Virus record (IMG/VR): IMGVR_UViG_2675903562_000009
DNA length: 22,290 nt
Reading direction: 5' to 3' (one strand)
DNA from: a virus
Taxonomy: Duplodnaviria > Heunggongvirae > Uroviricota > Caudoviricetes
This document shows positions 4,111 through 18,746 of the stretch, in pieces. Both the position numbers and the translations under genes were made by a program. How positions within the stretch are numbered: position 1 is the stretch's first letter; every line of letters begins with the position of its first letter. The notes below the pieces were generated by a model. The model ran no database searches. It had not been told where the DNA came from and saw only the letters and a list, made by a program, of their open reading frames with translations.

Positions 4111-4785
4111 TCAGTCTAAGTATTGATGTATTTGTGAAACTTTACCTTTAATGGTGTAACCACCATTCAGTTCGATGGGTTTGTAAAGCGGATTCAGTGA
4201 CAACAGATAGATGTTTGGTCCGTCAATCGCAACTTTTTTTAGTGTTACGTTTGGCGTTCCTTCCAATTGGATTAAGATTATTTTTCCCACCAGTTCTCTA
4301 ATGTTACTTGAGCATGGTGTGATCAGCACGGTAGATCCGTCGGGGATGGTTGGGAGGCCGTTAGAGTTTGTCATCGCATCTCCCTCAACATGCAATAAAA
4401 AAGAGTTTTCAGCGGTTTTTGTCATGACATCAACCCAATTCTTAATACCAGGAATCTCGGTTACTGGACAACTCATATCCCAATAACCAGCCTGTTCCCA
4501 CGTTAAAACGGGCAACCGGGCGATGTTGTCACTAATGTAAAGGTACTGATTCAGACGCAGATCATCGGTTTTATCGTGACCGTCCTTTCCATAAAGAATC
4601 CATTCAGGAGATTTGGAAAGCAATTTTGACAGTAGATGCAAATTCTCACCGTCAGGTTTTGAAGAGCCATTTTCCCATTTTGTTACGGATACACGAGATA
4701 TGCCGATTGCTTTCGCAACCTGCTGTTGGGTTAATCCAACGTCTTTTCGACGATTCCGAATACGTTCGCTGATAGTGTTTTTCAT
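4111..4785 (-). CDS. cI: CI-type prophage repressor (XRE-family HTH N-terminal domain, S24/LexA-like C-terminal domain with Ala at the nucleophile position)
   Basis: HTH segment LTQQQVAKAIGISRVSVTKWENG; C-terminal domain has the LexA/CI-like VEGDAMT motif and a downstream LKK lysine. Start placed at ATG 4785 (MKNTISERIRN...), where the operator abuts the start codon with no SD (leaderless-like); the track ORF extends to a TTG at 4884, and 4827 is an alternative ATG. Confidence 0.85.
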   Translation of the reverse strand: MKNTISERIRNRRKDVGLTQQQVAKAIGISRVSVTKWENGSSKPDGENLHLLSKLLSKSPEWILYGKDGHDKTDDLRLNQYLYISDNIARLPVLTWEQAGYWDMSCPVTEIPGIKNWVDVMTKTAENSFLLHVEGDAMTNSNGLPTIPDGSTVLITPCSSNIRELVGKIILIQLEGTPNVTLKKVAIDGPNIYLLSLNPLYKPIELNGGYTIKGKVSQIHQYLD

Positions 4786-4860
4786 GTAACCAATGTTACT
4801 ACCAAGTGATGTTGCTATGGTTGACATTGTAATGTAACTATTGTTACCCTCCTGCTCGAA
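4786..4860. promoter_or_regulatory. OR-like divergent control region between cI and cro, with repeated GTAAC-N4-GTTAC operators
   Basis: GTAACCAATGTTAC at 4786-4799 and GTAACTATTGTTAC at 4834-4847, centres 48 bp apart, with a degenerate candidate (GTTGCTATGGTTGA) midway giving about 24-bp spacing. TTGACA hexamer at 4821-4826. Confidence 0.6.
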
Positions 4861-4876
4861 ATAACAGGAGAGTTTT

Positions 4877-5092
4877 ATGTTCAAAGATGATGTTCTGCGC
4901 TATTTCAAAAAAAAGCGACTAGTAGCTGAGGCTCTTGGAATTTCACATGTGGCTGTTGTGCGGTGGAAAGCAGTTATTCCCAAACTTCGCGCAATGGAAC
5001 TGGATGAAATTACTAACGGTGAATTGAAATACAACCCAGAACTTTACAAGAAGCAGGATAGCACCTCGAACGAAGGAAAGAATGATTCATGA
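4877..5092 (+). CDS. cro: Cro-type repressor (P22 Cro-like)
   Basis: 71-aa ORF with GGAGAG SD; MFKDDVLRYFKKKRLVAEALGISHVAVVRWKAVIP resembles P22 Cro as remembered; divergent from cI across the operator region. Confidence 0.8.
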   Translation: MFKDDVLRYFKKKRLVAEALGISHVAVVRWKAVIPKLRAMELDEITNGELKYNPELYKKQDSTSNEGKNDS

Positions 5093-5514
5093 AAATCAAG
5101 CATGAACACATCCGCATGGCGATGAATGCCTGGGCGCGTCCTGATGGCGAAAAAGTTCCAGCAGCTGGAATAACCCAGGCTTATTTTGAGTTGGGTATGA
5201 CGTTCCCAGAACTGTATGACGACAGCCATCCGGAAGCCCTGGCTCGTAATACCCAGAAAATTTTCCGCTGGGTAGAGAAAGACACCCCTGATGCAGTTGA
5301 AAAAATTCAGGCGTTGTTACCAGCGATCGAAAAGGCAATGCCACCTTTGCTGGTGGCCAGAATGCGCAGCCACAGTTCAGCTTATTTTCGGGAGCTGGTG
5401 GAGACGCGGGAACGACTGGTGAGAGACGCTGATGATTTTGTCGCAGTGGCGATCGCTGGTTTCAATCAGATGAATCGTGGTGGCCCGGCAGGAAATGCCT
5501 TGGTGATGCACTAA
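5089..5514 (+). CDS. YdaT-family protein (CII-like regulator, sometimes annotated as a toxin)
   Basis: 141-aa ORF overlapping the cro stop (ATGA), AAGGAAAG SD; the N-terminus MKIKHEHI matches what I recall of Rac YdaT; occupies the cII position. Confidence 0.65.
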   Translation: MKIKHEHIRMAMNAWARPDGEKVPAAGITQAYFELGMTFPELYDDSHPEALARNTQKIFRWVEKDTPDAVEKIQALLPAIEKAMPPLLVARMRSHSSAYFRELVETRERLVRDADDFVAVAIAGFNQMNRGGPAGNALVMH

Positions 5515-5537
5515 AAGCACGGTGTTCGGAGTTTTTT

Positions 5538-6485
5538 ATGAGCAGCAAGCTTCATGGTCTTGTCTGGGAAGGGTGTGCCTTCACCGGCATGATCTTATCC
5601 AGGGTGGCAGTTATGGCTCGCCTTGCAGATTACAGCAATGACGAAGGTGTGTCATGGCCTGCAGTGGAGACCATTCGTCGTCAGATTGGGGCAAAGAGTG
5701 AATCAACGGTTAAAGCTGCGATAGCAGAACTGGAAAAGAACGGCTGGCTGACGAAGGAGGAACGTAAGGTCGGTGGGCGTAATGAAAGCAATATCTACCG
5801 TCTTAATGTGGAAAAACTCGAAGCAGCAGCAGCGGCGGCGCGTGAGGCATATAAACCGAAAAGAAAAATTAGCCAGGCAAAAAATGACCCGTCAAATATT
5901 GCCCCCTCAACGGTTAACCCATCAAATTTTGATGGATCAACCGTTGATAAAAAACAGTCGGATAGGGGGGCGATGGTTGGCCCCGATCCGTCAGTATTAA
6001 AACCTGATCCGTCAGATAAAAGATCTTTTCGTCCGGAAGCTTCGCAACCGGACATGCAGACGGCTGAACAGGATTTTTTAACCCGACACCCTGACGCGGT
6101 TGTGTTCAGTGCGAAAAAACGCCAGTGGGGTAGCCAGGAAGATTTAGCGTGTGCGCAGTGGATCTGGGGGCGAATCGTGAGTCTTTACGAGCAGGCCGCC
6201 AGCGATGATGGCGAGATTTCGCGACCGAAAGAACCCAACTGGACCGCATGGGCCAACGACGTGCGCACAATGCGGATGCTGGATGGCAGAACTCACAGAC
6301 AAATTTGTGAAATGTTTGGTCGGGTGCAGCGGGATCCATTTTGGGTAAAAAATATCATGAGTCCGTCAAAGCTTCGCGAAAAATGGGATGAACTGGTTAT
6401 CCGCCTGGGGCGTTCGTCTGTACAGCGTTGTGTGAATCATATTTCTGAGCCGGATACCGAAATTCCGCCGGGATTCAGGGGGTGA
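5538..6485 (+). CDS. Replication initiation/organiser protein (O-like: winged-HTH N-terminus, DnaT-like C-terminus)
   Basis: 315-aa ORF with GGAG SD; positioned immediately upstream of the DnaC-like gene; its linker-coding region contains iteron-like direct repeats. Confidence 0.75.
   Translation: MSSKLHGLVWEGCAFTGMILSRVAVMARLADYSNDEGVSWPAVETIRRQIGAKSESTVKAAIAELEKNGWLTKEERKVGGRNESNIYRLNVEKLEAAAAAAREAYKPKRKISQAKNDPSNIAPSTVNPSNFDGSTVDKKQSDRGAMVGPDPSVLKPDPSDKRSFRPEASQPDMQTAEQDFLTRHPDAVVFSAKKRQWGSQEDLACAQWIWGRIVSLYEQAASDDGEISRPKEPNWTAWANDVRTMRMLDGRTHRQICEMFGRVQRDPFWVKNIMSPSKLREKWDELVIRLGRSSVQRCVNHISEPDTEIPPGFRG
5885..6020. repeat. Iteron-like direct repeats inside the replication-initiator gene (candidate origin)
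   Basis: CCGTCAAATATT (5888), CCATCAAATTTT (5918), GATCCGTCAGTATT (5985) and GATCCGTCAGATAA (6006), with the palindrome ATCAAATTTTGAT and AT-rich spacers; lambdoid origins characteristically lie inside the O gene. Confidence 0.5.
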
Positions 6486-6491
6486 CGTGTC

Positions 6492-7238
6492 ATGAAAAAC
6501 ATTGCGGCAGGTGGTGTTCTTGAGCGTATCCGTAAGCTGGCCCCACAGCATGTAATCGCGCCGTACCGGACAGTGGACGAGTGGCGCGAGTGGCAACTAG
6601 CAGAAGGGCGAAAACGTAGCGAGGAAATCAACCGCCAGAATCGCCAGTTGCGGGTGGAAAAAATCCTGAATCGTTCGGGCATCCAGCCTCTGCACAGCAA
6701 ATGCTCGTTTGCGAATTATCAGGTGCAGAATGACGGGCAAAAACACGCGCTGAGCCAGGCAAAATCCATCGCTGACGAACTGATGACCGGGTGCACGAAT
6801 TTTGTGTTCAGCGGTAAGCCGGGTACCGGAAAGAACCACCTTGCAGCCGCCATTGGTAATCATCTTCTGGCGAAAGGTCGCAGCGTGATTGTGATAACGG
6901 TGGCTGATGTGATGCTGGCGTTACACAACAGCTACGACAACAAAAACTCAGGCGAAAAATTTTTACAGGGGTTGTGTGATGTTGACCTGCTTGTCCTGGA
7001 TGAAATCGGAATGCAGCGGGATACGCGCAACGAGCAGGTCACGCTGAACCAGATAGTCGACCGCAGAACGGCTTCGATGCGCAGTGTCGGAATGCTGACA
7101 AACCTGAACCACGTAGCGATGAGTACGCTTCTTGGTGAGCGTGTAATGGACCGCATGGTCATGAACGGTGGTCGCTGGGTGAATTTTAACTGGGAGAGCT
7201 GGCGTTCGAATGTCAGGCACCTGAGGGTTGTGAAGTAA
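6492..7238 (+). CDS. DnaC-like helicase loader (AAA+ ATPase, IstB/DnaC family)
   Basis: 248 aa; Walker A FSGKPGTGKNHLAAAIG; strong end-to-end resemblance to E. coli DnaC as remembered (NRSGI.PLH..CSF.NY, LLVLDEIG, TNLN, LGERVMDRM). Confidence 0.9.
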   Translation: MKNIAAGGVLERIRKLAPQHVIAPYRTVDEWREWQLAEGRKRSEEINRQNRQLRVEKILNRSGIQPLHSKCSFANYQVQNDGQKHALSQAKSIADELMTGCTNFVFSGKPGTGKNHLAAAIGNHLLAKGRSVIVITVADVMLALHNSYDNKNSGEKFLQGLCDVDLLVLDEIGMQRDTRNEQVTLNQIVDRRTASMRSVGMLTNLNHVAMSTLLGERVMDRMVMNGGRWVNFNWESWRSNVRHLRVVK

Positions 7239-7259
7239 TTTTGTCCGGAGGAAATTTTA

Positions 7260-8021
7260 ATGGAAACCGTTTTTGACGCACTGAAAGCAATGGGAAAAGC
7301 CACATCCATAGAACTTGCTGCGCGACTTGATATCAGTCGTGAAGAAGTGCTGAACGAACTATGGGAACTGAAAAAGGCTGGTTTCGTTGATAAAAGCGCG
7401 TACACCTGGCGTGTGGCTGATAACAACGTTCAGCAGGAACAGCCAGCGCAGGCAGAACTGCCGGAAGAAACCTCCACGGCGACAGTAGCGAAAATCTCAG
7501 AGTGCGATTTAACCGCGACGATTGAACAACACGGACCACAAACGGCTGATGAGCTGGCTACATTGTTTGGTACCACATCACGCAAAGTGGCTTCAACGCT
7601 GGCAATGGCAATCAGCAAAGGACGCCTGATTCGTGCAAATCAGGACGGTAAATTTCGTTACTGCATGCCGGGCGATAATTTACCAGCAGAGCCGAAAGCA
7701 GCATCGGTAGCGGAAACTGATGGTAAAGCCTTTCCTCAGCCTGCATGTGTTGCGTTACCAGTACAGGAGGCTGCAACACAGGAAGATATTAAAACAGAAA
7801 CTGTGGCGGACATTGTGCAGTCGCTGCCATCGTTTACTGAAACGCGAGCGGATGACCTGGTTTTACCATCGCTGCATATGGCAAACCGCGAACTGCGTCG
7901 GGCGAAAAGTCATGCCCAGAAGTGGGAACGAGTCTGCGCCGCGCTGCGGGAGCTGAACAAGCACCGGGATATTGTTCGACATATTTTCGATTCCTCCAGT
8001 CATATTGTGTCGGAAAAGTGA
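7260..8021 (+). CDS. Hypothetical phage protein with two winged-helix-like segments
   Basis: 253-aa ORF with GGAGG SD; two HTH-like stretches ([28 protein letters not shown] and [30 protein letters not shown]). Confidence 0.65.
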
Positions 8022-10242: not shown

Positions 10243-10260
10243 TGATGGGTATTGTGCTCT

Positions 10261-10746
10261 ATGGCTGAGATTGTTGAAGGAGTGCATTACCTTACGGTTG
10301 ATGATCTTGTTGAAATCAATCGTTCCCTAATTGAATTACAGACGCCAGATGAGCCCGTTGGTGTTCTGAGTCCAGATAACTTAAGTTCTTCTCAGGCCCG
10401 TCCCAGCATGGTTCGATGGTATGAACAGACTAATGACATGTTTGTACTGGCATCGGTATTGATTGAAAGTCTGATTCAGAATCATCCGTTTGCTAATGCG
10501 AACAAACGAACAGCTATGATGGCTGGTTACGTCTTCTTGTTGTTGAATGGCTATGAGTTAACAGCACCAGGCGATGAAATCGTGGAAATGGCAGAGGGAC
10601 TGGCCTGCAAAACCTATACTCGAGAAGATCTCGAGAACTGGTTGTGTTATTGGTCTCGCGCGTATGACAGCCGGGAATTATGTAAAACAGGCGCAACTAT
10701 TGTTTTGTATGAAACTATCAAGCTTAAAATAGAACAGCAAAACTAA
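10261..10746 (+). CDS. Doc/Fic-family toxin-like protein
   Basis: Contains HPFANANKRTA, matching the Doc-type variant of the Fic motif (HxFx[D/N][A/G]NKR); size is appropriate for a Fic/Doc family member. The track start is a TTG at 10252; the ATG at 10261 is preferred. Confidence 0.7.
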   Translation: MAEIVEGVHYLTVDDLVEINRSLIELQTPDEPVGVLSPDNLSSSQARPSMVRWYEQTNDMFVLASVLIESLIQNHPFANANKRTAMMAGYVFLLLNGYELTAPGDEIVEMAEGLACKTYTREDLENWLCYWSRAYDSRELCKTGATIVLYETIKLKIEQQN

Positions 10747-12197: not shown

Positions 12198-12557
12198 ATG
12201 CTCATAGATTTGGTTTTACCTTACCCGCCGACGGTGAACACTTACTGGCGACGCCGTGGCAGCACATATTTTATCTCGGAGGAGGGAAAGCGTTATCGCC
12301 GGGCTGTGGCGCTTATTGTTCGCCAGCAGCGGCTGAAATTAAACCTGTCCGGAAGGCTGGCGATAAAGGTGATTGCAGAGCCACCGGATAAACGTCGTCG
12401 TGACCTGGACAATATCCTGAAAGCACCACTGGATGCACTGACACATGCGGGGTTGCTTATCGACGACGAGCAGTTTGATGAAATTAATATTGTGCGCGGT
12501 CAGCTTGTTCCTGGTGGGCGGTTGGGGATAAAAATCACAGAACTGGAGTGCGCATGA
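12198..12557 (+). CDS. rusA: RusA-family Holliday junction resolvase
   Basis: 119 aa; LPYPPTVNTYWRRRG N-terminus and the RRRDLDN...LIDDEQ acidic motifs characteristic of RusA. Confidence 0.85.
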   Translation: MLIDLVLPYPPTVNTYWRRRGSTYFISEEGKRYRRAVALIVRQQRLKLNLSGRLAIKVIAEPPDKRRRDLDNILKAPLDALTHAGLLIDDEQFDEINIVRGQLVPGGRLGIKITELECA

Positions 12558-13243
12558 ATAACCAGTATTTACAGTTTGTTCGTGAGCAACTCATGATTGC
12601 CACCGCCGATTTGAGTGGATCAACAAAAGGGCAGCTTGAAGCCTGGCAGGAGAATGCCATGTTCGATACAGGGCGTTACAGGCGAAAAAAAATCCGGTAC
12701 CGCGATGAAGTGACTGGAAAAATGATAACGCGGGATAATCCACCAATCCCGGGAAAGCAATCGCTGGCGAAAGGTTCATCAATTGCCCTGGTCAGTCCGG
12801 TTGAGTTTTCGACATCATCATGGCGACGCGCCGTTCTGTCTCTTGAAGAGCATCAGAAGGCGTGGGTGCTGTGGGTATACAGTGAAAATCCGAGTTGGGA
12901 TTATCAGGTGGTCATTGCGAAATGGGCGTGGGATAAGTTTCAGGTGCATTTTGGCACCAGAAAAATTACAGGGAAAACGCTTGAGCGTCTGAAGAAATTA
13001 ATCTGGCTGGCGGCGCAGGATGTCAGGGGGAGGATTACTGGGCGTGACGTCTACCAGCGACAGGAACTTGCCAGACTGTGTGGAGTTAAGCCTGACAACT
13101 GGAGCCATAATTATGCGAACTACTGGCGTGAGATGTGCGACATTTTTAAGAAACTCGATACAGAATCCTTGATTTGCACCGTGAAAATGAGATCGCAACA
13201 AAAAGCGACCTTTTCACGACGAGATATTGCAAAAGTCAATTAA
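12554..13243 (+). CDS. Candidate late-gene antiterminator (Q-like), assigned by position
   Basis: 229-aa ORF (ATG overlapping the rusA stop, GGAG SD); last gene of the nin-like region, immediately followed by a promoter-like element and a strong terminator, as for lambda Q/pR'/tR' and Qin ydfU-quuQ. No motif-level confirmation. Confidence 0.5.
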   Translation: MNNQYLQFVREQLMIATADLSGSTKGQLEAWQENAMFDTGRYRRKKIRYRDEVTGKMITRDNPPIPGKQSLAKGSSIALVSPVEFSTSSWRRAVLSLEEHQKAWVLWVYSENPSWDYQVVIAKWAWDKFQVHFGTRKITGKTLERLKKLIWLAAQDVRGRITGRDVYQRQELARLCGVKPDNWSHNYANYWREMCDIFKKLDTESLICTVKMRSQQKATFSRRDIAKVN

Positions 13244-13255
13244 ATCGCATACATT
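13227..13255 (+). promoter_or_regulatory. Candidate late promoter (pR'-like)
   Basis: TTGCAA (13227-13232), 17 bp, TACATT (13250-13255); would give a roughly 50-nt transcript ending at the terminator at 13291-13315. Confidence 0.3.
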
Positions 13256-13290
13256 TTATGTAAATGTGATATTTTGCCGTATAGTGTGTA

Positions 13291-13315
13291 AACCCGCTTA
13301 AATGCGGGTTTTTTG
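13291..13315 (+). terminator. Rho-independent terminator (tR'-like)
   Basis: AACCCGC-TTAAAT-GCGGGTT followed by TTTTTT. Confidence 0.75.
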
Positions 13316-13387
13316 CTTAACTCTGTGGACCTTTTTATCTGTAGTTGTAAGATATGGATATTCTTACAATTTAGGTCGGTGAGCTTA

Positions 13388-14152
13388 ATGGAAGAACAGC
13401 ACGGTAATTACTTTATAAAACGAATTCAGTTGATTGGAAGGGGTGCATTTGGCTTTGTTGAACACGTTAAGGTTTACAACCTCAACAAGGGTGAATGTGG
13501 GGATTATGCTAGAAAGGTTTTAGCCCCCGAAAAACCAGAGCTTTTGGCGCAAATAGAGCAGTTTAGAAGGCGTTTTAAAAGGGAGGTCGTGTATCAATCA
13601 CATTGCGTACATAGCAATATTGTTCCTATTTATTTGTGCGATTTGTTTGCCGAGAATCCATGGTTCATTATGGATAAAGCAGAATGTGATCTTGAGCACG
13701 AAATAACGAACAACCTTCTTACAACAGATCAAAAAATTTCAATAGTGAAAATGGTATTAGATGGTGTAGCTCACATCCATGCGAAAGGCTATTTACACAG
13801 AGATATAAAACCATTTAATGTCTTGCGATTTAGCGACGGAACATACAAGGTGTCTGATTTTGGTCTGGTAAAAGATACAAATCCCGAAGGGGATACCACT
13901 AAATTGACCGAGATCGGTACCCGTATGGGAAGTACAAGATATATGGCTCCCGAGATTTTATATAATGCCGAGTATTCAGTTAAGACTGATGTTTATGCGG
14001 TGGGGCGGTTAATTGAGGACTTAAATTTAGATGATAAAAAAATAAAGCCTATCATAGCGAAGTGTACCAGGATGGATAAAGATGATAGATATCAGACAAT
14101 AGATGATGTGGCGTTTGATTTTGTGCATTCTTTTTTAAGGAGTGAGTCATGA
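13388..14152 (+). CDS. Hanks-type (eukaryotic-like) Ser/Thr protein kinase
   Basis: 254 aa from ATG 13388. Gly-rich loop GRGAFGFV, lysine in YARKVL, catalytic loop HRDIKPFNVL, DFG (VSDFGLV) and APE (YMAPEIL) motifs all present; region is visibly AT-rich relative to neighbours (not computed). Confidence 0.85.
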   Translation: MEEQHGNYFIKRIQLIGRGAFGFVEHVKVYNLNKGECGDYARKVLAPEKPELLAQIEQFRRRFKREVVYQSHCVHSNIVPIYLCDLFAENPWFIMDKAECDLEHEITNNLLTTDQKISIVKMVLDGVAHIHAKGYLHRDIKPFNVLRFSDGTYKVSDFGLVKDTNPEGDTTKLTEIGTRMGSTRYMAPEILYNAEYSVKTDVYAVGRLIEDLNLDDKKIKPIIAKCTRMDKDDRYQTIDDVAFDFVHSFLRSES

Positions 14153-14892
14153 TTCAGCTGATAGCGACTTCATCATTCTCGTATCCAAAAGAACCAGGTA
14201 GGGTCAACGAAGATTCATTGCTTCCTCCCAAAATTGTAGGGGATGGCATCTTATTTGCCGTAGCTGATGGTGTAGGTTCATACACTGGTGCCAGTCAGGC
14301 TTCATCAATGGCAATTGCTGAACTTTCAGCATTGACAAGCTTATCTTTTGACACAGTTCCGGATGTATTTGATGAAGTTAAGCGAAAGGTTATGTCGTTA
14401 GCTGATGTTAATGATGAGTTCGATAAAGCTGCTACTACACTTACGTTTTGTTATGTTTGTGATAGCGGAATTATTATTGGTCATATTGGTGATTGTCGTT
14501 TGTATTGCATTGGAGAGAAGAAAGCATACCAATTGACGAAGGACGATACCAGGCATCAGATGCTAATTGATCAGAATATTTTTAAACCCAGAGATTTGAA
14601 GGATAAACCGGGCAAAAATATCTTAACGACGGCTATAGCCTCAAATGTTGATATGGAATACGACTGTGATTTTATCACATGGAAAGATTTACCTAGTATT
14701 AACGGGGTATATCATCTGTGTATCATGTCTGATGGGGTTCATAACGTTTGGGAAAAACGCCCCAGATTTACATCAAATACGATGAGTAATAGTCAGAAGT
14801 TTTCTAATGGCATTTTGCGTCGTATAGAGAGAGCCGGACCTGATGATGACTTTTCTTTAGTAAGTATAATGGTGCGTGTGACGTCAGATTAG
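14149..14892 (+). CDS. PP2C-family Ser/Thr protein phosphatase
   Basis: 247 aa; start overlaps the kinase stop (ATGA) with AAGGAG SD; metal-binding motifs VNEDS, AVADGVGS, GDCR and MSDGV typical of bacterial PP2C phosphatases. Confidence 0.85.
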   Translation: MIQLIATSSFSYPKEPGRVNEDSLLPPKIVGDGILFAVADGVGSYTGASQASSMAIAELSALTSLSFDTVPDVFDEVKRKVMSLADVNDEFDKAATTLTFCYVCDSGIIIGHIGDCRLYCIGEKKAYQLTKDDTRHQMLIDQNIFKPRDLKDKPGKNILTTAIASNVDMEYDCDFITWKDLPSINGVYHLCIMSDGVHNVWEKRPRFTSNTMSNSQKFSNGILRRIERAGPDDDFSLVSIMVRVTSD

Positions 14893-14967
14893 TTGTATAA
14901 ACTCAGTAGGGAATGCTAATTTCACATACAACATAGTTAAAGAAAACTTAATTTTAATGTAAAAAGG

Positions 14968-14996
14968 CTGCCCTCAGGCGGTCTTTTTATGCTCGA
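14968..14996 (+). terminator. Probable intrinsic terminator after the kinase-phosphatase operon
   Basis: Imperfect hairpin GGCTGCC-CTCA-GGCGGTC (one G-U pair, one mismatch) followed by TTTTTAT. Confidence 0.4.
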
Positions 14997-15110
14997 AAAT
15001 TGATGCAGTACGTTAAACGCGCTGGTGGTTGCGAATACCGGTCTTTCAGCTTGCTGGCTTTTTAGACAAGAGTTATTGGTATGTCACGTTAACCAGAAAA
15101 GGGAAAAAGA

Positions 15111-15309
15111 CATGCTAAAACAGCAGGATATGACCGAAACCGCCAGAGTGGTGTTTAATGAATTAAGCGTCACCGAACCGGCGACCGTCGGGGAAATTGC
15201 GCAGAATACTTACCTTTCACGCGAACGCTGCCAGTTAATCCTGACCCAGCTTGTTATGGCGGGTCTGGCAGATTATCAGTTCGGTTGTTACAGACGCCTT
15301 CTGCAGTGA
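15111..15309 (+). CDS. Small putative winged-helix DNA-binding protein (66 aa)
   Basis: Track ORF 15025..15309 trimmed to ATG 15111 (MLKQQDMTETARVVFNELSVTEPATVGEIAQNTYLSRERCQLILTQLVMAGLADY); lies upstream of the methyltransferase. Confidence 0.55.
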
Positions 15310-15459: not shown

Positions 15460-16509
15460 ATGACTAATACTGTAAAAATATCCAGTTGTGAGTTAATCAA
15501 CGCTGATTGCCTGAAATTTATCCAGACCTTACCGGAAAACTCTGTCGATCTGATAGTCACAGACCCGCCATACTTTAAAGTGAAGCCCGAGGGCTGGGAT
15601 AACCAGTGGGAGGGCGACGATGATTACCTGAAATGGCTGGACCAGTGTCTGGCGCAGTTCTGGCGGGTACTGAAGCCTGCCGGAAGTCTTTACCTGTTCT
15701 GTGGTCATCGCCTGGCATCTGACACCGAAATCATGATGCGTGAGCGCTTTAATGTGCTGAACCACATTATCTGGGCGAAGCCGTCCGGACGCTGGAACGG
15801 GTGCAATAAGGAAAGTCTGCGGGCGTATTTTCCGGCAACAGAGCGCATTCTGTTTGCAGAACATTATCAGGGACCGTATCGCCCGAAAGATGATGGCTAT
15901 GTGGCACAGGGGCGCGAGCTAAAACAGCACGTCATGGCCCCGCTGATTTCTTACTTTCGTGATGCGCGTAAATCACTGGGAATAACGTCAAAACAGATAG
16001 CGGAAGCCACCGGAAAGAAAAACATGGCTTCGCACTGGTTTGGTACCAGTCAGTGGCAGTTACCGAACGAGGGTGATTACAACAAATTGCAGGCGTTGTT
16101 TGCGCGTGTTGCGGCAGAAAAACATCAGCGCGGGGAACTGGAAAAGCCACACCACCAGCTGGTCAGCACATACAGTGAGCTGAACCGGCAGTACACGGAA
16201 CTGCTGAGTGAATATAAAAATTTGCGGCGGTATTTCGGTGTGACGGCGCAGGTTCCGTACACCGATGTCTGGACGCATAAACCGGTGCAGTACTATCCAG
16301 GAAAACATCCGTGCGAAAAACCGGCAGAAATGCTGCAGCAGATAATCAACGCGAGCAGTCGTCCGGGAGACCTGGTTGCAGATTTTTTTATGGGTTCAGG
16401 TTCAACGGTAAAAGCGGCGATGGCACTGGGGCGTTGTGCGATTGGTGTTGAGCTGGAGACAGGACGTTTTGAACAGACAGTCAGGGAAGTTCAGGATTTA
16501 ATCGTTTGA
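15460..16509 (+). CDS. Orphan DNA methyltransferase (N6-adenine/N4-cytosine class, beta-type motif order)
   Basis: 349 aa; motif IV DPPY (VTDPPYF) near the N-terminus and motif I FFMGSGST near the C-terminus; overall architecture like YhdJ-type enzymes. No restriction endonuclease gene is adjacent. Confidence 0.9.
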   Translation: MTNTVKISSCELINADCLKFIQTLPENSVDLIVTDPPYFKVKPEGWDNQWEGDDDYLKWLDQCLAQFWRVLKPAGSLYLFCGHRLASDTEIMMRERFNVLNHIIWAKPSGRWNGCNKESLRAYFPATERILFAEHYQGPYRPKDDGYVAQGRELKQHVMAPLISYFRDARKSLGITSKQIAEATGKKNMASHWFGTSQWQLPNEGDYNKLQALFARVAAEKHQRGELEKPHHQLVSTYSELNRQYTELLSEYKNLRRYFGVTAQVPYTDVWTHKPVQYYPGKHPCEKPAEMLQQIINASSRPGDLVADFFMGSGSTVKAAMALGRCAIGVELETGRFEQTVREVQDLIV

Positions 16510-16558: not shown

Positions 16559-16634
16559 GGCCCTTTAGCTCAGTGGTGAGAGCGAGCGACTCATAATCGC
16601 CAGGTCGCTGGTTCAAATCCAGCAAGGGCCACCA
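16559..16634 (+). tRNA. tRNA with CAU anticodon; closely resembles E. coli tRNA-Ile2 (ileX-type, lysidine-dependent), Met not excluded
   Basis: 76 nt with perfect 7-bp acceptor stem (GGCCCTT/AAGGGCC), D-arm GCTCAGTGGTGAGAGC, anticodon loop CTCATAA, T-loop TTCAAAT and encoded CCA. Confidence 0.85.
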
Positions 16635-16635
16635 A

Positions 16636-16712
16636 CCGTCACCAGTTCATCAGGAAAGAGCGTCAACCCTTTAAGTTGAGTGTGCGAGGTTCGAGTCCTC
16701 GGTGGCGGGCCA
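16636..16712 (+). tRNA. Non-canonical tRNA-like gene (anticodon loop CCTTTAA, nominal UUU) or tRNA pseudogene
   Basis: Acceptor stem CCGTCAC/GTGGCGG (one G-U), T-arm CGAGG-TTCGAGT-CCTCG and encoded CCA, but C at positions 8 and 33 and an atypical D-arm. Begins 1 nt after the preceding tRNA. Confidence 0.45.
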
Positions 16713-16714
16713 GT

Positions 16715-16790
<76 letters not shown>

Positions 16791-16793
16791 TAT

Positions 16794-16868
<75 letters not shown>

Positions 16869-17206: not shown

Positions 17207-17292
17207 CATATCCTCGCCACACCCGGCGCATATCACATCAAATAACGCCGCGCAAAAGGCATCTGCGGGCGCCTTTGACGGGGTGTTTTTAC

Positions 17293-17314
17293 GGGCCGCT
17301 GGTGGCCCTTTTTT
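17293..17314 (+). terminator. Rho-independent terminator (third of a stack), 20 nt upstream of the next start codon
   Basis: GGGCC-GCTGGT-GGCCC followed by TTTTTT. Confidence 0.65.
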
Positions 17315-17333
17315 ATTTACAGGAGAAAAACGT

Positions 17334-18746
17334 ATGTCTGAACCCTTATCTGGTTCCGGCACGGCTGCGGCGCTCGGTGGGGCGACGGTATTCGGGCTGT
17401 TTACCGGAACGGATTTCGGGATTGTGTTTGGTGCGTTCGCCGGGGCGTTATTTGTGGCAACGATGCCGCAGGCGCTTTCAATCTGGCGTGTGGTGGCGCA
17501 TTTTTTGGTGTCGTTTATCGTCGGCGTGCTGGGGGCGCGCGTGCTGTCAGCCTGGATTGCATCAAAAACAGGGTATGACGGTACATCGGCAGATGCGCTG
17601 TGTGCGGTGCTGGTATCGGTGGTGTCGGTGAAGATTGCGGATATCAGGCAGGTTGAAACCACAGCACGCTATCTTGGCACGGCGCTGTACTGGATAGCCG
17701 CCAGTATCAATATCAGGCCGGGCCATAATTATTATTTTTACGTTCGCAGTGTGAACACCGTTGGCAAATCGGCATTCGTGGAGGCTGTTGGTCAGCCGAG
17801 TGATGACGCATCCGGCTATCTGGATTTTTTCAAAGGCGAGATAGGGAAAACCCATCTGGCTCAGGAGCTGTGGACGCAGATTGATAACGGTCAGCTTGCG
17901 CCTGACCTGGCTGAAATCAGGACATCCATTACGGATGTCAGCAATGAAATCACACAGACCGTCAATAAGAAACTGGAAGACCAGAGTGCAGCGATCCAGC
18001 AGATACAGAAGGTTCAGGTTGATACAAATAATAACCTGAACAGCATGTGGGCTGTGAAGCTGCAGCAGATGCAGGACGGACGCCTTTATATCGCGGGTAT
18101 CGGTGCCGGTATTGAGAATACGCCAGCAGGCATGCAGAGTCAGGTGCTGCTGGCGGCAGACAGGATTGCGATGATTAATCCTGCGAATGGCAACACAAAG
18201 CCGATGTTTGTTGGTCAGGGCGATCAGATATTCATGAACGAAGTGTTCCTGAAATATCTGACGGCTCCCACCATTACCAGCGGCGGTAATCCTCCGGCAT
18301 TTTCCCTGACACCGGACGGAAAGCTGACCGCTAAAAATGCGGATATCAGTGGCAGTGTGAATGCGAACTCCGGGACGCTCAACAACGTCACGATTAACGA
18401 GAACTGCCGGGTTCTGGGAAAACTGTCCGCGAACCAGATTGAAGGCGATCTCGTTAAAACAGTGGGCAAAGCTTTCCCCCGGGACTCCCGTGCACCGGAG
18501 CGGTGGCCATCAGGGACCATTACCGTCAGGGTTTATGACGATCAGCCGTTTGACCGGCAAATTGTTATTCCGGCGGTGGCATTCAGTGGCGCTAAGCATG
18601 AGAGAGAGCATACTGATATTTACTCCTCATGCCGTCTGATAGTGCGGAAAAACGGTGCTGAAATTTATAACCGTACCGCGCTGGATAATACGCTGATTTA
18701 CAGTGGCGTTCCCGCCGTCACATGCCGGGACCATCACCGTGTATGA
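17334..18746 (+). CDS. Chimeric ORF: about 100-aa hydrophobic N-terminus joined to a C-terminal fragment resembling tail-tip host-specificity protein J; likely a deletion remnant
   Basis: ATG 17334 with AGGAGA SD. First ~100 aa contain three hydrophobic stretches. From about [42 protein letters not shown] onward the sequence parallels the C-terminal third of lambda J as remembered ([42 protein letters not shown]). Confidence 0.6.

Follow-up and report, generated by a model that had tools for sequence, protein, structure and literature searches.

A two-gene kinase-phosphatase cassette of lambdoid prophages and its possible role as a phospho-switch

Phosphorylation-based phage defence is a young topic, and the examples that we found are Stk, Stk2, PD-T4-6, TerY-P and the kinase-kinase-phosphatase module KKP. 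Stk, encoded by the Shiga-toxin phage 933W, reportedly mediates exclusion of phage HK97. KKP (PfpC-PfkB-PfkA) is carried by Pf, P2, P4 and Mu-like prophages (Guo et al. 2024, PMC11341870). In prophages of Pseudomonas and E. coli, its Ser/Thr kinases act as the toxin and its PP2C phosphatase as the antitoxin; defence is set off when a phage protein, Gp59 of T4, inhibits the phosphatase, and the module also controls induction of the Pf prophage via phosphorylation of the silencer MvaU (PMC11341870). As described in PMC10542128, TerY-P and TerY-P-like systems combine a PP2C with a vWA protein and with a kinase that bears a zinc ribbon or OB fold, and one version of TerY-P acts against phages as a stand-alone system (Anantharaman 2012; Gao 2020, via PMC10542128). 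Here, we describe a gene pair consisting of one Ser/Thr kinase and one PP2C phosphatase, located at positions 13388-14892 of a 22,290-nucleotide stretch of viral DNA (IMG/VR record IMGVR_UViG_2675903562_000009), which belongs to a lambdoid prophage of E. coli. This whole stretch is referred to below as the window, and the pair as the cassette.

The cassette is a discrete two-gene unit of Gammaproteobacteria, in which the kinase gene is followed directly by the phosphatase gene. Both enzymes carry intact catalytic sites, and the unit moves between phage slots and other chromosomal locations. We tentatively interpret it as a switch that acts against competing phages, and weigh this interpretation below against a role in lytic growth, in host or lysogeny regulation, and in selfish maintenance.

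The kinase and phosphatase as one unit

The kinase gene runs on the plus strand from the ATG at 13388 to the TGA ending at 14152 and encodes a Hanks-type Ser/Thr kinase of 254 amino acids. The protein matches Pfam Pkinase (PF00069) at E=2e-33, above the gathering score, and its only Pfam matches are Pkinase and PK_Tyr_Ser-Thr; it consists of the bare kinase domain and lacks accessory domains. Its HRDxKxxN loop and G(T/S)xxYxAPE segment are of the Ser/Thr type, and kinases of the RD class, to which the window kinase belongs because of its HRD arginine, are usually turned on via phosphorylation of the activation loop. Conservation was scored in two alignments, of 24 and 72 homologues. Residues G17, G19, G22, K43, E66, H137, R138, D139, K141, N144, D157, F158, G159 and D201 are invariant in both, and E189 and R234 are invariant in the 24 homologues and at least 90% conserved in the 72. 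The AlphaFold2 model (predicted local distance difference test score, pLDDT, 89.9) shows the canonical bilobal fold, in which only the activation loop (residues 162-178) is disordered, and it matches solved structures of PknB/Stk1-type kinases at a template modelling (TM) score of ~0.73. The protein ends directly after subdomain XI, with a helix at residues 238-253 and neither a zinc ribbon nor an OB fold, and its homologues are 241-285 amino acids long.

The phosphatase gene, also on the plus strand, runs from the ATG at 14149 to the TAG ending at 14892 and encodes 247 amino acids of the PPM/PP2C family (Pfam PP2C_2 at E=2.1e-14, above the gathering score; PF13672, PF00481). In alignments of 23 and 74 homologues, D22, D40, G41, G114, D115, D195, G196 and D233 are invariant, among them the metal-binding residues D22, D40, D115, D195 and D233; D234 is invariant in the 23 and at least 90% conserved in the 74. 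The DG, GD and SDG motifs are likewise invariant or conserved at 90% or more. The AlphaFold2 model of the phosphatase (pLDDT 92.4) matches Stp1, PstP and tPphA at TM scores of 0.75-0.78.

An earlier sequence-only reading of the window had reported both open reading frames (ORFs), their ATGA overlap and an AAGGAG ribosome-binding site exactly as they are found in the sequence. It had also considered all catalytic motifs complete, and each of them is present; across the 24-74 homologues, their residues do not vary or are conserved at 90% or more. Profile searches and structure prediction, which it had suggested, gave the Pkinase and PP2C_2 matches and the PknB/Stk1 and Stp1/PstP/tPphA folds described above; in the alignments, in which it had proposed to look for substitutions of catalytic lysine or aspartate, K43, D139, D157 and the phosphatase aspartates are intact. 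Between the window and the allele of strain ML35, two E. coli alleles with 96% nucleotide identity, the kinase has a ratio of nonsynonymous to synonymous divergence (dN/dS) of 0.037 and the phosphatase one of 0.12. These low values indicate that both genes are held by selection. From catalytic residues, confident folds and dN/dS, both enzymes look competent, as the sequence-only reading had supposed, and both are under strong purifying selection.

The junction of the two genes (14137-14152, plus strand) is compact. AAGGAG at 14137-14142 lies 6 nucleotides before the phosphatase ATG (14149-14151), which has positions 14150-14151 in common with the kinase TGA (14150-14152). Of 79 junctions in homologous cassettes (38-100% identity), 64 retain the 4-nucleotide overlap, despite differing nucleotides around it. 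Its conservation implies that translation of the two genes is coupled, in agreement with the earlier proposal.

Linkage of the genes is without exception in the loci compared. The phosphatase lies immediately 3' of the kinase in 80/80 IMG/VR loci (kinase identity 38-100%) and directly downstream of it in all 9 other contexts examined. Kinase and phosphatase divergence are correlated (r=0.80), a value reached in 0/1000 Mantel permutations. The GC content of the cassette is 4-19 points under that of its flanks in 38/38 representatives, and no third gene is conserved with the pair. Adjacent, co-transcribed and inherited together, the two genes have the organisation of a toxin-antitoxin module (type II/VII-like, toxin-first). 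Fused kinase-phosphatase proteins were suggested by the family phrog_5650, which has 565 positions and is matched by the phosphatase at 273-520; the kinase has no match there, and no fused protein was present among 210 phosphatase homologues.

The same cassette, at 95-100% nucleotide identity, was found in 50 of 5426 complete E. coli genomes (~1%), always on the chromosome and always after Q, the gene of the late antiterminator. Its recurrence in 50 genomes shows that the pairing is not due to chance. The carriers include the enterotoxigenic E. coli (ETEC) strain E24377A and the enteroaggregative E. coli (EAEC) strain 55989. RefSeq labels the genes of these E. coli carriers as a kinase and a PP2C phosphatase, and the labels in PHROGs are likewise generic. 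The record of E24377A (NC_009801.1) holds the cassette at two places. Two IMG/VR viral contigs (L024 and L025) carry an identical cassette and come from one source genome (IMG id 640753024), and two copies occur in IMG genome 2836755666, of which one (L060) is intact and the other (L065) has a stop codon in the kinase.

Two isolated phages carry the pair at 40-45% identity, namely Cronobacter phage phiES15, with the order Q, kinase, phosphatase, lysis genes, and Escherichia phage Flotzy, with the order Rz, kinase, phosphatase, small terminase. Protein searches found homologues of each gene, of about 250 amino acids, in Enterobacterales, Vibrionales, Pasteurellales, Aeromonadales, Pseudomonadales, Xanthomonadales and Acinetobacter. 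When a phosphatase profile was run against 1.84 billion representatives, about 20 clusters at 50% identity scored above 220 bits and were followed by a continuum of generic PP2C proteins; the phosphatase family is small and well delimited. A scan of genome contigs with generic kinase motifs returned only generic Hanks kinases at 24-35% identity, and it is uninformative on the family of the window kinase.

Where the cassette is damaged, the damage is asymmetric. An A7-to-A6 frameshift that truncates the kinase at residue 218 is present in five complete E. coli genomes (e.g. L097, strain 118UI) and in L032, and a 10-bp deletion in the kinase is shared by strain 510016 (L098) and L033. The kinase of L065 carries W93stop, its sister copy L060 in the same genome being intact, and that of L068 has a stop at codon 3. 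Frameshifts in the kinase of L095 may have originated as sequencing errors, and strain SY033 (L099) has insertion sequence (IS) elements in both genes. In total, the kinase alone has been inactivated at least five times with the phosphatase intact, and an intact kinase with a broken phosphatase was not seen in the 50 genomes and 80 loci. Five kinase-only events against zero phosphatase-only events give a one-sided p of ~0.03, with homopolymer runs equally common in the two genes. A kinase that harms the cell in the absence of its phosphatase would be expected to leave such an asymmetry, which is only suggestive. Phase variation via the A7 tract was considered and rejected: runs of 6-9 A occur throughout both genes in all relatives, and their position is never conserved. 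These scattered runs were read as a result of AT-richness and not as a designed switch.

Insertion sites, expression signals and prophage setting

Insertion sites were surveyed by Pfam tallies of neighbour genes in 42 non-redundant viral clusters, together with individual look-ups. The pair is constant in this survey, of the kind that the sequence-only reading had suggested, and its slots are several. The first site lies between Q and holin, behind three unrelated Q families (PF06323, PF03589 and PF06530); in Providencia the cassette stands after the methylase, not before it. At the second site it lies between endolysin/Rz and the small terminase. At the third, occupied in 5/42 clusters (L041, L046, L063, L081 and L091), it lies directly behind a cI-type repressor gene and is co-oriented with it. 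The fourth is between SSB and Bro/integrase in a Haemophilus prophage.

The layout of L046 (4878-7485) illustrates the third site. A cro-like gene on the minus strand is followed by the repressor (5147-5902), the kinase (5998-6723), the phosphatase (6720-7463) and a terminator (7468-7485), and no terminator was called between repressor and kinase. In phage lambda, cI-rexA-rexB includes a two-gene exclusion cassette that is transcribed with the repressor, has a terminator at its end and is expressed in lysogens. The repressor, kinase and phosphatase of L046-type phages thus appear to form an operon in the position of lambda cI-rexA-rexB, which would imply expression in the lysogen. The likeness to cI-rexAB is one of position in the L046 layout only; the proteins are unrelated, and the window cassette lies elsewhere.

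Contexts outside typical phage slots rest on four individual look-ups. A non-phage copy in Xanthomonas lies beside a 654-amino-acid NACHT ATPase and a SymE toxin (L010, 9682-11646 and 6148-6501), and a non-phage copy in Pseudomonas putida lies among transposases, near a 507-amino-acid PNP_UDP_1 protein (L007, 12357-13880). The Aeromonas copy stands alone between housekeeping genes, and the Vibrio copy is at the edge of a small prophage-like block. The cassette is horizontally mobile among accessory slots and compositionally foreign. In the window, GC content is 0.37-0.40 across 13200-15000 and 0.49-0.53 on either side, about 12 points below the flanks, as expected from the earlier remark on AT-richness.

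The cassette of the window follows the gene of the late antiterminator Q (12548-13243, plus strand; PF06323 Phage_antiter_Q, E=5.2e-84; phrog_304; called Q in RefSeq relatives), which is its context and not a part of it. A tR'-like intrinsic terminator, identified by terminator scan and RNA folding, is present on the plus strand at 13290-13317 and consists of the hairpin AAACCCGC..GCGGGTTT and a U-run. Hairpin and U-run at 13290-13311 fold at -14.2 kcal/mol (z=-4.0), so that the position after Q and a terminator, noted in the sequence-only reading, holds. The terminator sets Q and the inferred late promoter apart from the kinase. A post-Q hairpin is conserved in the ML35, Cronobacter, Yersinia, L035 and phiES15 relatives; since the same hairpin follows Q in divergent relatives, it belongs to the module of Q and the late promoter.

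A promoter scan reported no sigma-70 promoter of the cassette's own in 13317-13387. The sole -10-like hexamer between terminator and kinase start, TACAAT at 13365-13370 on the plus strand, has no acceptable -35 and is at best a weak candidate promoter; among the upstream regions compared, it is conserved in close E. coli alleles only. An alignment of the upstream regions of six relatives showed conservation of the Q-linked terminator and of no promoter. Strong expression of the window cassette should depend on Q-mediated read-through of 13290-13317, judging by these signals. Downstream of the phosphatase, a closing hairpin at 14959-14990 (plus strand) is flanked by an A-run and a U-run; it folds at -18.3 kcal/mol (z=-4.5), 0/200 shuffles fold equally well, and it looks like a bidirectional terminator at the end of the cassette.

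Several features of a moron in the Hendrix/Juhala sense are present, namely insertion between Q and the lysis/methylase genes, deviant GC and the terminator at 14959-14990; a promoter of its own, a further such feature, was not found in the scan of 13317-13387. The post-Q site is indeed accessory, in line with the moron slot proposed from the sequence, and it is one of several slots that the cassette occupies.

The remainder of the window shows the prophage in which the cassette resides. An S24 cI-like repressor is encoded on the minus strand at 4111-4884, and replication genes come next in the gene order. An ORF with a Fic/DOC match (10252-10746, plus strand; PF02661, E=7e-12) lies upstream of DUF968, RusA and Q and is likely another accessory gene of this prophage. 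After DUF968, RusA and Q follow the kinase/phosphatase pair, a 65-amino-acid ORF (15112-15309, plus strand), an N6/N4 DNA methylase (15460-16509) and four transfer RNA (tRNA) genes (16559-16868, plus strand). The 65-amino-acid ORF, which matches phrog_331 and, weakly, a TrmB-like winged helix-turn-helix, is placed outside the cassette because the ML35-type allele lacks both this ORF and the methylase N-terminus. The tRNA cluster reads CAT (Met or Ile2-type), Lys, Lys, Gly; otherwise similar prophages have Ile, Thr, Gly (E24377A and 503025) or Ile, Arg, Arg (ML35), and the tRNA slot after the methylase is therefore itself variable.

Further downstream, an in-frame fusion ORF (17283-18746, plus strand) joins part of a holin to the C-terminal part of the tail-tip protein J. 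At residues 18-118 the fusion shares 97% identity with the E24377A prophage holin (Phage_holin_8), and the remainder matches Ig_J_second, Phage_Tail_Tip and Ig_GpJ_C. The deletion behind this fusion took the genes for endolysin, spanin, terminase, head and tail. The window prophage is therefore defective; it has retained Q, the cassette, the methylase and the tRNAs. The similar prophage of strain 503025, by comparison, appears to be complete.

A proposed phospho-switch and its alternatives

Our preferred interpretation, held tentatively and with slightly less than even confidence, is that the pair may be a toxin/antitoxin-like phospho-switch for superinfection exclusion or abortive infection, carried as a mobile moron of temperate phages. 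It is the best-supported interpretation, on the grounds of the obligate kinase-then-phosphatase linkage, the mobility among slots including the cI operon, the NACHT and SymE neighbours and the kinase-only decay. Mainly from this context and by analogy with KKP, the 254-amino-acid RD kinase would be the toxic effector, which would activate itself by phosphorylation of its activation loop and phosphorylate host or phage proteins. The PP2C phosphatase, made in fixed proportion via coupled translation, would restrain it by continually removing the phosphates, leaving the cell unharmed. The most likely trigger would come from a phage that enters the cell or competes with the resident one: one of its proteins would inhibit the phosphatase or stimulate the kinase, and the balance would shift to the kinase; the resulting phosphorylation would block the triggering phage, by exclusion or abortive infection. 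Such a switch would presumably be expressed in the uninduced lysogen.

Several considerations weigh against this interpretation. The window cassette, like most phage-borne copies, is located in the late operon, behind a Q-controlled terminator and with no convincing sigma-70 promoter, and a late-operon cassette may be nearly silent in the lysogen, where defence must act. The defence-like neighbours are two anecdotes and not a statistic. The decay amounts to a handful of events, of which some may be homopolymer sequencing errors and all may be neutral in cryptic prophages. PADLOC gave matches to the kinase domain only and nothing meaningful for the phosphatase, NCBIfam scores fall far under every curated cut-off, and the literature search gave no experiment on any member of the cassette family. 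A role in lytic growth, finally, is a serious rival.

According to this rival, which we judge unlikely overall, the pair is a Q-antiterminated late function of the lytic cycle, in which the kinase reprogrammes proteins of the host or the phage while virions are being made, and the phosphatase keeps the harm in check. This could tune host metabolism or lysis timing, block co-resident prophages or satellites, or disarm host defences, and would make the cassette a temperate counterpart of T7 gp0.7-type kinases. Most phage copies are indeed located in the late operon and co-oriented with it, either from Q to holin or from Rz to small terminase, and the window cassette stands behind a tR'-like terminator with no promoter detected in the scan. 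Its slot is that of the Shiga toxin (stx) genes in related phages, and these are known to be Q-dependent. Copies in the cI operon do not fit a late function, nor do those in non-phage chromosomal islands, which have no lytic cycle; in the window prophage itself, purifying selection is seen despite the loss of lysis and structural genes. Precedents for phage kinases that phosphorylate host defence proteins exist in the T7 kinase (bioRxiv 10.1101/2024.12.20.629319) and JSS1_004 (PMC12345140), but the anti-defence kinases known so far are described as products of early genes that have no phosphatase partner. A late gene would also come too late against defences at the entry stage. If a lytic-cycle role were true, this would be the first case in which a late function of lambdoid phages consists of a kinase paired with a phosphatase.

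A version that joins both ideas appears improbable. It supposes a Q-gated, induction-coupled phospho-switch that would be silent in the lysogen when located in lambdoid late operons and be turned on at lytic commitment, with the phosphatase as a ceiling on phosphorylation. From that point the kinase would protect or remodel a cell destined to die, e.g. through superinfection exclusion or hijack of satellites while virions are made, or through lysis timing, and copies in the cI operon would exclude phages at the lysogen stage. If this were true, one minimal two-enzyme module would serve opposite stages of the life cycle, and the insertion site alone would decide between them.

About equally improbable is a regulator of lysogeny or host physiology, in which the balance of the two enzymes sets the phosphorylation of a host regulator, e.g. 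a prophage-silencing nucleoid protein, with prophage induction, or stress tolerance and virulence in the ETEC and EAEC carriers, as the outcome. The cI-adjacent placement in some phages would suit a regulator of lysogeny, and ETEC E24377A and EAEC 55989 are among the carriers, but slots and hosts vary freely, from Xanthomonas to Haemophilus, which argues against a dedicated host-specific target. KKP provides a precedent in its action on Pf induction via MvaU (PMC11341870), but the window proteins have no DNA-, RNA- or phosphopeptide-binding domain in Pfam that could confer target specificity, and only ~1% of E. coli genomes carry the cassette.

Finally, the pair is very unlikely to be a selfish addiction module or inert passenger of no benefit against phages, which persists because its loss, or loss of the phosphatase first, harms the cell, or by hitch-hiking: kinase-only decay fits addiction logic, and selfish cassettes typically have a low GC content and are mobile, but strong purifying selection on both enzymes across the 38-100% identity range, with a conserved junction, argues for a selected activity, neither partner bears the marks of an unstable antitoxin, and many supposedly selfish toxin/antitoxin modules were later found to be defensive (PMC11341870, discussion).

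Comparison with known systems

PADLOC matched the window kinase to PD-T4-6 (E=1e-34) and Stk2 (E=5e-28) over the kinase domain only (e.g. profile positions 11-201 of 327), and to mad6 over profile positions 51-243 of 659 only. The PD-T4-6 models also match the housekeeping PASTA kinase of every S. thermophilus genome (PMC11514479), and the match is not diagnostic for that reason. The PADLOC labels mad6, PD-T4-6, Stk2 and MkoA were rejected as names for the pair, the matches being limited to the kinase domain; NCBIfam antiphage_MADS6 scored 66.7 bits against a cut-off of 460. For the phosphatase, the only PADLOC match was a meaningless one at E=0.007. Stk2 of staphylococci and PD-T4-6 of E. coli resemble the window kinase in the use of a Hanks kinase domain as effector of abortive infection, but they are single, longer proteins with no phosphatase partner. 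Stk of 933W is, like the window kinase, a eukaryotic-like kinase encoded by an accessory gene of a lambdoid E. coli prophage, and lies in the immunity region, as do some relatives of the cassette. In contrast to the window kinase, it is encoded by a single gene without a partner phosphatase, and the two share 25.7% identity over 68% of the length.

Housekeeping pairs of eukaryotic-like Ser/Thr kinases and phosphatases (eSTK/eSTP; Stk1/Stp1, PknB/PstP and PrkC/PrpC) provide the closest solved structures and the best NCBIfam matches, and they too are adjacent and co-transcribed. The best NCBIfam scores, 104 against a cut-off of 450 and 93.5 against a cut-off of 230, were obtained with such housekeeping-type kinase and phosphatase families. 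Unlike the window pair, the housekeeping kinases are membrane receptors with PASTA domains, the gene order is phosphatase-kinase, and the genes are part of the core chromosome.

Among systems that include a phosphatase, TerY-P is similar in that a PP2C and a Ser/Thr kinase occur together in the context of conflict systems; it differs in the vWA protein TerY and the C-terminal zinc ribbon or OB fold, neither of which is present in the window pair. No ORF adjoining the pair encodes a vWA protein, and vWA is absent from the most frequent neighbour Pfam families of the 42 viral clusters.

KKP is likewise prophage-borne, combines Hanks-type kinases with a PP2C in Gram-negatives including E. coli, and has been shown by experiment to follow the logic proposed here. 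KKP consists of three genes of 900-1300 bp each in the order phosphatase-kinase-kinase, whereas one kinase comes first in the window and is followed by the phosphatase; the flanks of the pair are Q and the 65-amino-acid ORF, and all 80 relatives likewise have a single kinase before the phosphatase. The two KKP kinases are jointly required, and their FHA and cold-shock domains are essential for toxicity, whereas the 254-amino-acid window kinase is bare, with neither a cold-shock nor an FHA domain. The carriers differ as well: cassettes of the window type belong to lambdoid phages, with the late operon as their usual slot, and KKP to Pf, P2, P4 and Mu-like prophages.

A literature search for a two-gene kinase/PP2C phage cassette, or for the phiES15 genes, found nothing specific, and the window cassette is not among the validated systems of DefensePredictor. 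The sequence-only reading could match the pair to no named defence system. This stands for the two-gene, domain-minimal architecture and does not for the combination of a kinase with a PP2C, since KKP and TerY-P exist. The combination and the generic gene labels are already known; the architecture is unmatched. After KKP, the surprise to a specialist is limited, and the alternation between lysogenic and late-operon slots is the concrete question: whether a site in the cI operon or in the Q-dependent late operon changes the role of the same module. The cassette is also an easy system in which to ask how a kinase/phosphatase pair senses infection and which phosphorylation stops a phage.

On the same tentative footing as the phospho-switch interpretation as a whole, the cassette may work like KKP without being a member of it, as a minimal variant that lacks the defining features of both KKP and TerY-P. 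Those two systems, the ones with a phosphatase among the examples found, have three genes plus extra domains; nothing smaller than the cassette is conceivable, with one bare kinase and one bare PP2C in about 1.5 kb, and it is native to E. coli.

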